A stretch of DNA of 64,000 bases, from NCBI GenBank assembly GCA_049840735.1, contig JASGJN010000026.1, forward strand, positions 64,001-128,000, read 5' to 3'. This document shows, piece by piece, positions 3,827 through 57,374 of the stretch. Origin of the DNA: Anaeromyxobacter sp. GTDB taxonomy: Bacteria > Myxococcota > Myxococcia > Myxococcales > Anaeromyxobacteraceae. The notes under the pieces were generated by a model. That model was not told the origin of the DNA. It ran no database searches and saw nothing but the letters and a program-made list of their open reading frames with translations. The number at the start of each line of letters is the position of its first letter. The first letter of the stretch is position 1. The translations under genes were made by a program, and so were the position numbers.

Positions 3827-3876
3827 CCGTTCGGCCTGAGCGTAGCGCCCGCGCAGCGGGCGCGGAGTCGAAGGCC
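3827..3876 (+). repeat. REP-like structured repeat (GGCCT/AGGCC subtype); empty IS1111 target
   Basis: ccgttc-GGCCT-gagcgtagc-gcccgc gca gcgggc-gcggagtcga-AGGCC; same consensus as over 20 other copies in the window. Confidence 0.9.
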
Positions 3877-51954: not shown

Positions 51955-54135
51955 ATGAAGCGCGTCCGCGTCGCCCTCCTGTGGCACATGCACCAGCCCC
52001 TCTACCGCGAGCCGGAGACGGGCGAGTACCTCATGCCCTGGGTCCGGCTGCACGCGACGCGCGCGTACAACGACATGGCGTGGATCCTGGAGCGCCACCC
52101 CGGCGTCCGCTGCACGGTCAACTTCGTGCCGGTGCTGCTGGAGCAGCTCGATGACTACGTGGAGGGGCGGGCCCGCGACCGGTTCCTGGACCTGACCGCG
52201 CGCCCGCCGGGCGACCTCACCGCCGAGGAGCGCCAGACCATCCTGCGGTCGTTCTTCATGGTGGGCTGGGAGACCAACATCCAGCCGCTGCCGCGCTACT
52301 GGGAGCTGCTCCAGAAGCGCGGCCGGGACCTGCGCCACGTGGACCTGGCCAAGCTGGCCCAGGGCTTCGGCGACCAGGAGCTCACCGACCTCCAGGTGCT
52401 CTTCAACCTGGCGTGGATGGGCTTCGGCGCGCTGGCTGACGAGCCGGCGCTGCGCGCGCTGCGGGAGAAGGGGCGGGACTTCACCCGCGCCGACGTGGCC
52501 ACGCTGCTCTCCGCCCAGTCGAGCATCGTGGCGGGGATCATCCCGCGCTGGCGGCGGCTGCAGGAGCGCGGGCAGGTGGAGCTCTCCTCCACGCCCTACT
52601 ACCACCCCATCCTCCCGCTGGTCTGCGACACCGACGCGGCCCGCCGCGCCATGCCGGGCGCGCACCTGCCGCCGCGCTTCGTCCACCCCGAGGACGCGCG
52701 CTGGCACGTCCGCGAGGCCGTGGCCACGCACGCCCGCCGCTTCGGCGCGCCGCCCGCCGGCATGTGGCCGGCGGAGGGCTCGGTCTCGCCCGAGGCGGTG
52801 GAGGTGCTGGCCAGCGAGGGCGTGCGCTGGGCGGCGAGCGACGAGGGCGTGCTGCTCCAGTCGCTGGGGCCGGGCGCCTCGCGGCTGCGCTCGCTCTACC
52901 GCCCCTGGCGCGTGACCGCCGGGCCGGGGCGCGAGCTGGCCATGCTCTTCCGCGACCGCTCGCTCTCCGACGTGATCGGCTTCACCTACTCGAAGGTGGC
53001 CGCCAAGCACGCCGTGCAGGACTTCATCGCCCATCTGCAGGGCGTGGGCGAGGCCTGGCAGCACGAGGGGCAGCCCGGCCCGGCCACCGTGGGCGTGTTC
53101 CTCGACGGCGAGAACGCCTGGGAGCACTACCCGAACTCCGGCCACGAGTTCCTGGACCGGTTCTACGGCGCGCTGGAGTCGCACCAGGACCTCCAGACGG
53201 TGACGCTCTCCGAGGCCACCGCCGACGCGCCCGGGCCGGTCATCCCGCGCATCCACTCCGGCTCCTGGATCGAGGCCAACTACCGGATCTGGATGGGCCA
53301 CGCCGAGGACCGGCAGGCCTGGGCCGCGCTGGGCAAGGCGCGCGAGATCGTGGCGCAGGCCGAGGCGGCCGGGACGGTGCCGGCGGAGCGGCTGGAGCGG
53401 GCCCGCCGCCACCTGTACGCGGCCGAGGGCTCGGACTGGTACTGGTGGTACGGCGAGGACTTCACCACCGAGCTGGCGGCGGAGTTCGACGGCCTCTTCC
53501 GCAACCACGTGATCCGGGCCGCGCTGCTGTGCGGCGCCCACCCGCCGCCCGAGGCGCTCACGCCCATCAAGCGCGCCGGCGGCGCCTCCGCCACCGGCCT
53601 CGAGGCGAAGCCGCTGCGCGAGCCGACGCTCCTGCTCACGCCGGAGCTGGACGGCAGGGAGACCACCTACTTCGAGTGGCAGGGCAGCGGCCTCTACCGC
53701 CCCGGCCAGCACCGCGGCTCGATGTTCGGCGGCGCGCAGGCCTTCCACGTGCTGCGCTACGGCTTCGACCTGGACGCGCTCTACGTCCGCCTCGACCCCG
53801 CCGAGTCGCCGGCCCGCTCGGCCGAGGTGGCCACGCACCTGCGCCTCACCTTCATGCTGCCGGACCGCCAGGCCTGGCTCGACTTCCCCATCCTGCCCGA
53901 CGGCCAGCGCCACGCCGGCCAGCTGCAGGGCAAGGCCGCCGGCCAGATCGCCTTCGCGCAGGTGGTCGAGCTGGCCGTCCCGTTCCGCGCCCTGGACCTC
54001 CCGCCCGGCCTGCAGGTGGCGGTGAGCGTGACCGCGCTCCGCAACGAGGTCGAGGTGGAGCGGCTGCCGCGCTACGGCTTCCTGCACTTCACCGTGCCGG
54101 ACGCCGACTTCGAGCGGGTGAACTGGCGGGTGTAG
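51955..54135 (+). CDS. Glycoside hydrolase family 57 (amylopullulanase-like)
   Basis: LWHMHQP, TPYYHPILPL, GMWPAEG, LDGENAWE and AEGSDWYWW conserved GH57 regions. Confidence 0.93.
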   Translation: MKRVRVALLWHMHQPLYREPETGEYLMPWVRLHATRAYNDMAWILERHPGVRCTVNFVPVLLEQLDDYVEGRARDRFLDLTARPPGDLTAEERQTILRSFFMVGWETNIQPLPRYWELLQKRGRDLRHVDLAKLAQGFGDQELTDLQVLFNLAWMGFGALADEPALRALREKGRDFTRADVATLLSAQSSIVAGIIPRWRRLQERGQVELSSTPYYHPILPLVCDTDAARRAMPGAHLPPRFVHPEDARWHVREAVATHARRFGAPPAGMWPAEGSVSPEAVEVLASEGVRWAASDEGVLLQSLGPGASRLRSLYRPWRVTAGPGRELAMLFRDRSLSDVIGFTYSKVAAKHAVQDFIAHLQGVGEAWQHEGQPGPATVGVFLDGENAWEHYPNSGHEFLDRFYGALESHQDLQTVTLSEATADAPGPVIPRIHSGSWIEANYRIWMGHAEDRQAWAALGKAREIVAQAEAAGTVPAERLERARRHLYAAEGSDWYWWYGEDFTTELAAEFDGLFRNHVIRAALLCGAHPPPEALTPIKRAGGASATGLEAKPLREPTLLLTPELDGRETTYFEWQGSGLYRPGQHRGSMFGGAQAFHVLRYGFDLDALYVRLDPAESPARSAEVATHLRLTFMLPDRQAWLDFPILPDGQRHAGQLQGKAAGQIAFAQVVELAVPFRALDLPPGLQVAVSVTALRNEVEVERLPRYGFLHFTVPDADFERVNWRV

Positions 54136-54199
54136 CGGCGTTCTCCCGCTGAGCCGTGCTCCGGATCCGTTCGGCCTTCTATGAAGCGGCGTCCCCGGT

Positions 54200-54485
54200 C
54201 AAGGGCCGGTGATGTCGTTTGTCCTGAAGCCTGGGCGGCGCTGGTTGGCCATCGGTCAGGGAGTCAGGCGAACGCGAGTTCCATCAGCCTTCTATTCGCG
54301 CTCAACAGGGGCGGCAGTGCCGCCGGCGCAGTGGGGGATTCGAGCAGGGGGCGCCATCTGAGCGACGGCCGTTCCTGGTGACCGGCCAAGGCCGAACTCG
54401 CGCTCACCCTGTCTCGAAACCCGCTTTCGCCTCACTCCCGGATCTCCGGCCCGGCGTCCGCCCGACTGGGTCCGATTTCGGTCGT
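54200..54485 (-). ncRNA. Predicted seekRNA/bridge RNA of the IS1111 element (ends approximate; target-binding loop 54339-54418)
   Basis: Stem-closed internal loop with guides GUUCGGCCUU (54397-54388) and CGCUCAGAUGG (54364-54354) matching the insertion site; IS-end matches at 54279-54295. Confidence 0.85.
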
Positions 54486-55525
54486 CTAGGCCATCGCGTT
54501 TCCCCTGCAGGTGCGGCTGCCGTCGAAGTCCTTCCCGTCCCTCATCATCGCGAACAGGATTCCGGAGAGTTTGCGCGCCAGCGCCACGACGGCGACTGCG
54601 CGTCCCCTCCGCCGGTGGATCTTCCCCGCCCATTCGCGCAGCGGTAGCGACTCTGCGCTCTTGCTGCGCAAGACGCAGTGCGCGGCCTGGACGAGAAGCC
54701 AGCGCACCCTGGCGTTGCCGGTCTTGGTGATCCGCCCCTTGCGCTGTTTCTCGCCCGAGCTCAGCTCGCTAGGGACCAGGCCGCAGTAGGCGGACACCTG
54801 CTGGGCACTCTGGAAGCGCTTGGGATCATCGATGACGACGTCGTATGCGATGGCCGTCACGATGCCCACGCCTGGCGCCGTCGTGAGCCTCCGTACCACT
54901 GCGCTGTCGCGGGCGATGGCCTCGAGGTCAGCGTCGGCCTTGGCGATCCGGGCGTTCAGCGTGTCGAACATCAGCAGCAACGGCTCGATCTCGTCGCGGA
55001 CCTCGTCCGGCAGGGCCCATCTCATCTCCCAACACCACCCGCGCGAAGTGCTCGGCTTCGCAGCTCGGGGCCCGTAGCCCGTGGCTCCGCAAGGACGTCC
55101 GGGTCACCGTGATGAACCGCGACCTGGTGCGGACCAGCGTGTCTCTCACCGACAGGCGGACAGCGACCGTCCGCCGGGATTCCGACCTCCGGTGGGCCGC
55201 TCGGTAGGTCCCTGAACGGCAAGCCTCGGCCAGCGCTCGGGCATCTCGCCGATCTGGTCTTTACCCGCCTCGTCCGCGTCCCGTACATCGGCGCGTAGTT
55301 CGGGTCGGCCACGATCACTTCGTGCCCGAGCGATTCGATGTGCCGCGCCACCCATTCGCTTTCCGTGGAGGCCTCCAGCAGGAGCTTGGCCCGCGGCCTG
55401 TTCGCGAGCACCTCGGCGAACCGGTCGGCCCGGGTGGGGATCCGCACCTCCAGAACCCCGCCCTCCGCGTTCAGGATGCAAAGCTGGCTGTCCTTCTTGT
55501 GCAGGTCGATGCCAATATGGTCCAC
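54486..55525 (-). CDS. IS110/IS1111 DEDD (RuvC-like) recombinase (apparent +1 frameshifts near 55255 and 55020-55030)
   Basis: IGIDLHK, LLEAST, restored KTDRRDA, APGVG, AYCGLVP.ELSSG, ITKTGN and AVVALARKL motifs across three frames. Confidence 0.93.
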
Positions 55526-55614
55526 GGCTGGTCTCCACTCTCTGCGGCTCTGACCGCGTTGTGGGGCATTCGTGCCACCACCCCGAGGTGGAGGCCAGCC
55601 GCTTCATTCCATCT

Positions 55615-55653
55615 GAGCGTAGCGAGCCCGCAGGGCTCGCGGAGTCGAAGGCC
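55615..55653 (+). repeat. Right part of the REP interrupted by the IS (left part at 54167-54177)
   Basis: gagcgtagcgagcccgcagggctcgcggagtcgaaggcc, nearly identical to 37981-38019. Confidence 0.92.
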
Positions 55654-55763
55654 AGGGGTTCACTTCCAGGCACCTCCTCCCGATCTTGCTGGATCTGGCA
55701 AACCGGTTGGCTATACAAACTGAACCGAGGGTAGGGCCCGACTGGACCGGGCCGGGGGGACGC

Positions 55764-56999
55764 ATGACCGCGAACGAGGGCACGCCAACGCTCCAGGAGT
55801 GGACGGAGCGGTACGAGCAGTGGACGGGCAAGGACCTGGGGTTCAGCCGCGTGGCGGCGGGGCTGTTCCTGCTGGTCGGGGCGGGGTTGGTGCTCGCAGA
55901 GCACTGGCGCTGGGCGTACGTGGCCGTCGCGGCGGCGCCCGTGTTTATCTGTCTGGCCCGGCTGATCGAATCCAGCGTCCATCGCTGGACGGCGCTCAAG
56001 CGCGCAGACCTCGAACAGCCCATCCGACCGCGGCCTCGGGAGCTGGGGTGGGTCGCACTCGGGATCGGCGTGGCCGCCGGCATGGTCGTCCTGGGCTGGC
56101 CAGAGTTCTGGATCGGGTTCGATCCCTGGTTCTTCTTCGGGCTCGCGCTGCTGATCACCGCCGCGGCGTTCGCCGTGGGGCTTCCGATCGTGGGGGAGGA
56201 TACGTCCTGGGCCGCCGTGCTGCTGGCTGGTGCCGGAGGTGCATCGCTCCTCTCGGAGGCCGGGGTCCTGGGCGCGGCGGTCGTCTCCGGATCCGGCCTC
56301 CTGCTGCTCAGCACCGGCGCTCGCGTGGCGCGCGACTACCGGCGCACGCGAAAAGGCTTCGTCGCGGCCTGGAGCGAGGCGCTTCGCAGGTCGCCCCCGC
56401 AGCGCGACCTCGTCAGGGTCGCGTACGACACCCGCAGCCTGGCCACGCTCTCCGCCCACGCGCGCGGCGTCGGAGACGTGATCGTGGGTCTCTGGATGTT
56501 GGCGGCTGCCGGGTTCAACGAGCTGTTTGGAGCGTCAGTCGGTCTGCCCATGCTCCTTGGGACGCTGCTCGTGTACCTGGCGGTCCTGGCGCCGGCGCGC
56601 CGCTACTACCAGCGGACCGGGCTCGTAGCCGCCGATCCCGGAAAGCTGATCTCGAAGATGCGAAGGATCGGGCTGCCGCTAGCCATCGTGGTCCTGCTCT
56701 TCCAGGCGTCCTTCGCGGCGATGATGCTGCACGGGGCGACGCGCTGGATCTGCATGGGGCTCCTCATCACGCCGGCGGCCCTGCTCCCGTGGGTTGCCAA
56801 CGGGAACCTGGATGCATTCATGGTGATCCCGCTGTCGCAAATCCCGTTCACCGTGGTGCGGGATCCGGGCGTCAACACGATGACCTGGGTGGTCCTGGGC
56901 ATCTCGCTGGCGGCGTTCGGCCTCTTCGGCCACGTCAGGTTCCAGCAGCTCAGCGCGAAGCTCCGCGGACCGCCTCCTGGCGAAGCAGCCTCCACATGA
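55764..56999 (+). CDS. Multi-pass membrane hypothetical protein
   Basis: Many hydrophobic segments in two blocks; stop overlaps the regulator start (ATGA). Confidence 0.75.
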   Translation: MTANEGTPTLQEWTERYEQWTGKDLGFSRVAAGLFLLVGAGLVLAEHWRWAYVAVAAAPVFICLARLIESSVHRWTALKRADLEQPIRPRPRELGWVALGIGVAAGMVVLGWPEFWIGFDPWFFFGLALLITAAAFAVGLPIVGEDTSWAAVLLAGAGGASLLSEAGVLGAAVVSGSGLLLLSTGARVARDYRRTRKGFVAAWSEALRRSPPQRDLVRVAYDTRSLATLSAHARGVGDVIVGLWMLAAAGFNELFGASVGLPMLLGTLLVYLAVLAPARRYYQRTGLVAADPGKLISKMRRIGLPLAIVVLLFQASFAAMMLHGATRWICMGLLITPAALLPWVANGNLDAFMVIPLSQIPFTVVRDPGVNTMTWVVLGISLAAFGLFGHVRFQQLSAKLRGPPPGEAAST

Positions 57000-57323: not shown

Positions 57324-57374
57324 GGCCTTCGACTCCGCCGCGCCCGGGGGCGCGGCTACGCTCAGGCCGAACGG
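57324..57374 (-). repeat. Reverse REP (GGCCT subtype); empty IS1111 target
   Basis: ggccttcgactcc...gctacgctcaggccgaacgg. Confidence 0.9.

Follow-up and report, generated by a model that had tools for sequence, protein, structure and literature searches.

An IS1111-type insertion sequence and its transposase

The window analysed here, that is, the whole stretch of 64,000 nucleotides under study (G000:C26:64001-128000), has a G+C content of 73.5% and carries between positions 54178 and 55612 what is, by its sequence, one copy of an IS1111-type insertion sequence. The element, its gene, its subterminal repeats and the two parts of its target are as follows.

54178..55612, minus strand: IS1111-type insertion sequence of 1435 bp; its ends are exactly common to five copies, and the flanks beyond the repeat differ
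54486..55525, minus strand: transposase gene, disrupted in the window copy by an insertion of 7 bp (near 55018-55030) and by a single additional T (55255), as seen in an alignment of the five copies
54181..54190: right-end subterminal inverted repeat, ATGAAGCGGC on the plus strand, separated from the terminus by 3 nt
55598..55607: left-end subterminal inverted repeat, GCCGCTTCAT on the plus strand, separated from the terminus by 5 nt
54169..54177, plus strand: target half GTTCGGC and core CT, the same in all five copies
55613..55656, plus strand: core CT and target half GAGCG, then the remaining REP-like repeat (TAG, a variable GC-rich hairpin, CGGAGTCGAAGGCCAGG), from the consensus of 101 free sites and the copy flanks

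The genome holds five copies of the element, which align at 98-100% identity, and in the window copy the CT core is found at both junctions (54176-54177 and 55613-55614). The subterminal inverted repeats of 10 bp, with terminal extensions of 3 and 5 nt, fit the repeats of 7-17 bp with short extensions that characterize the IS1111 group. Furthermore, there are 308 nt of non-coding sequence downstream of the transposase gene (54178-54485) as compared to 87 nt upstream of it (55526-55612), and a longer non-coding region 3′ of the gene is likewise a mark of this group.

The window copy contains two open reading frames of 167 and 179 aa, whereas the copy on contig C21 (L003) has an intact frame of 343 aa. 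The intact protein matches the Pfam families PF01548 (DEDD; 50.2 bits) and PF02371 (83.8 bits), such that a RuvC-like DEDD domain at the N-terminus is combined with a C-terminal PF02371 domain carrying a conserved serine, as is typical of the IS1111/IS110 family. According to the available text of PMC11187229, IS1111 transposases have a GL-P----S(t)G motif and a length of 330-350 aa; the 343 aa found here lie within this range, and GLVPSELSSG at residues 246-255 fits the signature. The protein is homologous to those of ISCro4 (9t56, E 1.3e-15) and IS621 (8wt6, E 9.1e-13), and its residues D7, E51, D91, D94 and S254 lie within motifs that align to both; the catalytic residues of IS621 are named in the accessible portion of PMC11208158. 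These two, both of the IS110 group and both distant, are the only named relatives that we saw for the transposase, and the element may already bear a name. A first-pass annotation, made from the sequence alone, had assigned the element to IS1111, and the DEDD and PF02371 domains, the 10-bp subterminal repeats and the downstream non-coding region of about 300 nt bear out this assignment.

As judged from its reading frames, the window copy cannot make its own transposase. The gene is intact in three of the five copies, among them those on C21 and C22, and the copy on contig C4 is broken like that of the window. The three intact copies might mobilise the window copy, because its RNA region (see below) and its ends are intact. 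The C21 copy has in its flank, some 190 nt past the right end, a 12-nt stretch that matches the left-end repeat in inverted orientation (TGAAGCGGCTGG); this may be left over from the end of another element, or be due to chance.

A REP-like repeat as the target

All five copies sit in the same site, GTTCGGC-CT-GAGCG, with the flanks CCGTTCGGCCT on one side and CTGAGCGTAG on the other and with CT at either junction; in the orientation of the transposase, the target reads CTACGCTC-AG-GCCGAACGG. In uninterrupted form, the 14-mer GTTCGGCCTGAGCG is found at 101 genomic sites, as against 0.18 expected from base composition, and 340 more sites differ from it by one mismatch. The free sites share the form CC-GTTCGGCCTGAGCG-TAG, followed by a variable GC-rich hairpin and then by CGGAGTCGAAGGCCAGG, and on this sequence evidence the target is a REP-like repeat of the host. 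The annotation had proposed exactly this 14-bp target, specified on opposite strands with an overlap at CT, and had recognized it as a host REP repeat; five out of five element copies are located in this target, and it is a repeat of the host with the 101 free copies just mentioned.

Among the genomes searched, the repeat is abundant only in the present one. In 30 relatives (18 of them of the same genus; several of the genomes are incomplete), the 14-mer was found 0-6 times per genome, compared to 101 times here. The element itself was not found in these same 30, partly incomplete genomes, in which the search gave only matches of 23-54 nt (E 5e-5 to 1e-3).

The repeat is also present in tandem arrays of five to seven units each, with periods of about 82-83, 105 and 111 bp; these arrays lie outside the window, at G000 C10:71754-72428, C26:251251-251595, C20:653872-654555 and C21:302453-303005. 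The window contains five uninterrupted 14-nt targets, at 3829, 9595, 19239 and 50653 on the plus strand and at 57359 on the minus strand (C26:67829, 73595, 83239, 114653 and 121359 in contig coordinates), one of which is less than 2 kb away from the element.

Two strands of the downstream region spell the target

The non-coding region downstream of the gene contains, on the strand of the transposase, the following parts of a predicted RNA.

54272..54416, minus strand: bridge/seekRNA module (target loop arm, second arm and donor-matching strand), as delimited by the covariance model R1
54400..54407, minus strand: 5′ arm of the outer stem, GUGAGCGC, which pairs with 54348-54354; helix 1
54389..54397, minus strand: 5′ guide (T), GUUCGGC and CU (core), then U54388; identical to plus 54169-54178
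54366..54388, minus strand: inner hairpin between the two guides; helix 2
54354..54364, minus strand: 3′ guide (B), CGCUC and AG (core) and AUGG; reverse complement of plus 55609-55619
54348..54354, minus strand: 3′ arm of the outer stem, GCGCCCC; helix 1
54298..54329, minus strand: second arm, GCGCC (54329-54325) with GAGCGC (54303-54298), around a hairpin at 54324-54310; helices 3 and 4
54297-54281, minus strand: single strand GAAUAGAAGGCUGAUGG after the second arm
54287..54295, minus strand: donor-matching strand AUAGAAG(GC), identical to the right end of the element (TAGA) and the AG core

The two guides had been pointed out in the annotation as copies of the junctions, and they are correct base for base. 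The plus strand at 54388-54397 reads AAGGCCGAAC, and the corresponding minus-strand RNA, GUUCGGCCUU, is identical to the left junction at plus 54169-54178 over 10 nt. The plus strand at 54354-54364 reads CCATCTGAGCG and is identical to plus 55609-55619, such that the RNA, CGCUCAGAUGG, is the reverse complement of the right junction over 11 nt. A scripted search likewise returned 10 and 11 nt as the longest junction matches. The 5′ guide is the complement of the transposase-sense target strand across the right half and the core. The 3′ guide has the same sequence as that strand over the left half and the core and therefore pairs with the other strand. This is the guide order of IS1111 elements, as the annotation had stated: the available text of Siddiquee et al. 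2024 (PMC11187229) places the seekRNA of this group downstream of the transposase gene, and within the RNA the top-strand match precedes the bottom-strand match. The last four nucleotides of the 3′ guide (AUGG) match the element's own left end, and the U that follows the 5′ guide also matches an end of the element; hence, the guides spell the junctions as they are after strand exchange.

A 96-nt fold of the region has an outer and an inner stem with the internal loop between them (-48.1 kcal/mol; z -3.08; 1 of 200 shuffles as good), and together with the base pairs supported by the family (see below) it reproduces the structure that the annotation had drawn, with one extra U-G pair. The entire non-coding region of 321 nt folds weakly better than its shuffles (z -1.94, 3 of 100 as good). 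A scan of 53900-55900 against Rfam 15 at E values up to 1 gave no family match.

A conserved RNA module in related elements

A scan with one genome per species yielded 80 related loci with transposases of 45-67% identity, mostly in MAGs of Gemmatimonadota and Vicinamibacterales. In these loci and L003 taken together, 81 in number, a pattern search recognizes the same subterminal repeat at both ends of 62, many of the others being cut by contig ends. Most relatives have ends that can be written as flank-AG-(6-nt extension)-TGAAGCGGC and, opposite to this, CCGCTTCA-(nAGA)-AG-flank, and their flanks are very unlike those of the present element. In the relatives, too, a strand about 90-120 nt past the stop codon is the reverse complement of the right junction, and a second strand about 20 nt further, beyond a small hairpin, is a direct copy of the left junction.

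We aligned 36 distinct sequences (alignment A1), taken from loci in which a match to the right flank had already been seen. Constant stems (GUGAGCGCG ... GCGCC; UGGC ... GCCG) enclose two variable loop strands, and RNAalifold returned the structure of the annotation with a second arm added. In A1, 95% of the cells are paired as compared to 89.2% in shuffles, compensatory changes are seen in 11 of 20 pairs as compared to 2-4 when the 3′ partners are slid, and the covariation score was reached by none of 500 shuffles, although the relatives are phylogenetically structured, such that shuffle controls overstate their independence. The pairs supported by the family are 54407-54400 with 54354-54348 and 54388-54385 with 54369-54366. 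Helix 1, the outer stem, is paired in 96% of cells and has compensatory changes in four of its seven pairs; helix 2, the inner hairpin, is paired in 97.9%, with a GC to AU swap in 6 of the 36 sequences; and in helix 4, within the second arm, three of four pairs show compensatory changes.

The covariance model R1, a module of 148 positions, finds the window copy at C26:118272-118416 (window 54272-54416) with 102.8 bits and an E value of 5.5e-24. It also matches 76 of the 80 homologous loci, downstream of the gene and on the same strand. A search of the element's own genome with R1 for orphan or divergent guide RNAs returned only the five element copies among the 150 of about 16,880 candidates that were scored.

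Guide strands follow the flanks of each element

Since A1 had been built from loci with a known right-flank match, the correspondence between guides and flanks was evaluated again on every locus with the two inverted repeats and sufficient flanking sequence (56 in total), with the loops placed by alignment alone and without use of the flanks. These loci contain 36 distinct guide pairs. The longest exact match to an element's own flank averaged 7.69 nt for the 5′ guide and 7.97 nt for the 3′ guide, compared to 3.73 and 4.26 nt to the flanks of other elements, and the observed sum of matches was reached in none of 20,000 permutations. Matches of at least 7 exact nt to the own flanks are found for both guides in 18 of the 36 pairs, and for either guide taken alone in 26 of 36. 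The remaining pairs mostly have 1-3 mismatches, and a few are without a fit to the flank. Matches of at least 7 nt to foreign flanks, which amount to 60 and 110 of 1260 pairs, arise because relatives share targets. The annotation had suggested that a covariance model built from homologues should reveal guides that vary together with each element's flanks, and this expectation is upheld by the 36 pairs.

Two relatives, L031 (the closest one, with 67% identity) and L101, have the same 3′ guide and left flank (…CGCTC-AG) as the present element, but 5′ guides that differ from it, GCUCAUCCUU and CGUCAUCCUU, respectively. In L101 the changed 5′ guide matches the element's own right flank; the contig of L031 stops short of the right end. 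As far as sequence comparison goes, this looks like the natural re-writing of one guide half. Furthermore, most relatives show agreement between their left-end extension and the two 3′-guide nucleotides that come directly behind the core (UU with TTGGTA, AG with AGGGGA), the exceptions being L089, L090 and L104.

In three loci (L036, L040 and L052), the right junction has a GG core and the left junction an AG core. Their 5′ guide has CC, in keeping with the GG, but their 3′ guide retains AG; at the first base of the core, therefore, one guide contradicts the other.

Proposed mechanism and alternatives

Taken together, the minus-strand non-coding stretch is very probably the target-binding loop of a bridge/seekRNA that guides an IS1111 element into the REP-like repeat. 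In such a mechanism, a transposase-sense transcript would carry the bridge (seek) RNA downstream of the gene, and the internal loop held open between the conserved outer stem and the conserved inner hairpin would be the loop that binds the target. Its 5′ strand, GUUCGGC-CU, would pair with the transposase-sense strand of the right target half and its 3′ strand, CGCUC-AG, with the other strand of the left target half, such that both guide strands would span the 2-nt core, the presumed site of strand exchange. The extensions of one (U) and four nucleotides (AUGG), which match the element's own ends, would correspond to the junctions after strand exchange. The DEDD/Ser recombinase of 343 aa would then insert an excised circle at GTTCGGC-CT-GAGCG within the REP-like repeat. 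That the RNA is produced, is bound by the protein and directs recombination we infer from the work on ISEc11, ISPa11, ISKpn4, ISPst6 and IS621; a look through public RNA runs yielded none for the present sequence.

One might ask whether the module acts as DNA rather than RNA, with a folded single strand or a protein-binding site at the right end that pairs with the target, as the guide sequences of IS200/IS605 elements do. The U-G pair that closes the inner hairpin is kept in 34 of 36 sequences, and the G-U pairs, this one included, fit only the transposase-sense strand; the U-G pair and the outer stem include the last base of each of the two guides as quoted in the annotation. However, single-stranded DNA of the same strand is indistinguishable from RNA in the present data, and G-T pairs are tolerated in DNA hairpins. 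We nonetheless regard a DNA module as very unlikely, for the module lies 90-230 nt inside the element and away from the cleavage site, the homologous IS621 and ISCro4 proteins have been solved with bridge RNA, and IS1111 transposases co-purify with RNA from the corresponding region (available text of PMC11187229).

It is highly improbable, too, that the matches are a by-product, with pieces of the REP target acquired by the element, or chance similarities in GC-rich DNA, and that the protein alone chooses the target. A genome of 73.5% G+C so rich in REP-like repeats (101 exact and 340 one-mismatch targets) would offer ample material for this. Yet the matching segments are on opposite strands, with a conserved hairpin between them, and relatives with unrelated targets have constant stems but change the same two loop positions so as to agree with the flanks of each element; no captured piece of REP would behave in this way across 36 different guide pairs. 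For other members of the IS1111 group, retargeting by guide swap has already been carried out (PMC11187229, in the part available).

A 3′ UTR element that controls expression of the transposase or stability of its transcript, with the target resemblance being secondary, would agree with a position right after the stop codon on the coding strand and with the fact that a consensus scan of 54100-55700 found no separate promoter of the sigma-70 type and no intrinsic terminator (such a scan may not suit a genome of 73.5% G+C), but it is a most improbable account, as regulation alone leaves the tracking of the flanks by the loop strands without a reason and does not explain the strand that follows the element's right end.

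Recognition of the donor

In a bridge/seekRNA of the kind proposed here, the element's own ends may be read as well. After the second arm, we read the strand AUAGAAG as a putative donor-side guide in the multiloop. Among the relatives, this strand has the form AnAGAAG, and its variable base tracks the right-end extension: CAGA is found with ACAGAAG, GAGA with AGAGAAG, TAGA with AUAGAAG and, in L090, TAAA with AUAAAAG, the exception being L107. The states of the donor strand follow clades, so that they represent few independent events. According to the available text of PMC11208160, 93% of IS1111 elements have a predicted bridge RNA in their right end, and many elements of the group have their donor-binding nucleotides in a multiloop rather than in an internal loop, which is consistent with the position of AUAGAAG.

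A second donor guide, with complementarity to the left end, did not emerge from any of the following searches. Matches of 5-mers to the circle junction, evaluated on alignment columns, were of the same strand only (the 3′ guide extension and AnAGAAG), with no complementary ones. The linker between the arms gave no signal when compared to the reverse complement of the left end (4.8 for the own type, 4.4 for other types), and 6-mer matches across the entire non-coding region included none at a consistent position. A further candidate, GAUGGAA (54285-54279), equals the left end of the present element, but was rejected as a guide, because the equivalent position in the relatives does not track the left end.

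A tentative and rather doubtful reading is that, in this soil-bacterial subfamily of IS1111, the RNA reads the donor with the single guide AnAGAAG, while the left end is recognized by the protein via the 10-bp subterminal repeat, or by a mode of pairing not seen in IS621. If true, reading of the donor with a single guide would amount to hybrid recognition of the donor by RNA and protein.

Five relatives (L034, L042, L056, L061 and L100) have CAGAAAG instead of CAGAAG at the right junction, while their donor RNA strand is still ACAGAAG; this means either that the right end has one A more or that the two junctions do not have the same core.

Another observation concerns the sequence just inside the right subterminal repeat, where 32 of 39 distinct right ends have a TTGAC hexamer (among them L035, L037, L062, L065, L089, L090 and L104); in the window it is TTGACC, at 54197-54202 on the minus strand. 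In a subgroup with TTGACA directly before the repeat, joining of the ends puts TAGGAT, TAGTAT, TAAGAT or GAGGAT 17 nt downstream. This combination would be a candidate promoter formed only in the excised circle, and a circle-formed promoter has been described for IS110-family elements (PMC11208160, in the part available). In the present element, the sequence at this 17-nt distance is GAAGAT, a weaker hexamer.

Relation to known systems

The element appears to be an additional, well-supported example of the IS1111 elements guided by bridge/seekRNA, a mechanism that is itself already known and that our data leave unchanged. What it adds is a likely natural case, from a high-GC soil lineage, of an IS1111 element whose target is chosen under RNA guidance, with a guide that would be tuned to a repeat abundant, among the genomes searched, only in the present host. 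The relatives furthermore provide a family data set that comprises a single conserved scaffold, a covariance model and no fewer than 36 natural guide pairs. Some of these pairs have only one guide changed, and guides thus appear to be re-written in nature one half at a time.

Elements of the IS110/IS1111 type that target REP sequences are reportedly the subject of work by Tobes and Pareja from 2006. As far as the available texts describe them, ISPa11, ISPpu9 (PMC12288879) and ISPpu10 (PMC11208160) resemble the present element in that they insert at one fixed position of a REP-like repeat, and in that the repeat offers on the order of a hundred sites per genome; the repeat targeted here is a different one.

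There is a close likeness by description to the seekRNA elements ISEc11, ISPa11, ISKpn4 and ISPst6 (PMC11187229, in the part available). Like these, the present element has a DEDD transposase of about 340 aa with a GL-P----SG motif, subterminal inverted repeats with short extensions, and a long non-coding region downstream of the gene. It also shares with them two short and overlapping target matches on opposite strands, of which the top-strand match comes 5′. It differs in its target and in its host lineage (its relatives being mostly from MAGs of Gemmatimonadota and Vicinamibacterales), the comparison being one of descriptions rather than of sequences.

IS621, for which the accessible portions of Durrant et al. 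2024 (PMC11208160) and Hiraizumi et al. 2024 (PMC11208158; 8wt6) were compared, has a homologous protein (E 9.1e-13) and likewise an internal loop that reads opposite target strands with an overlap at a 2-nt core. The guide extensions of the present element resemble the 2-nt handshake guides of IS621 (PMC11208158). However, the RNA of IS621 lies in the left end before the gene, whereas here it lies in the right end after the gene, and the order of the guides in the target loop is reversed between the two. In contrast to IS621, the present element has its donor-matching strand in a multiloop, with one donor guide recognizable, and its subterminal repeats are of 10 bp as compared to 2-3 bp in IS621.
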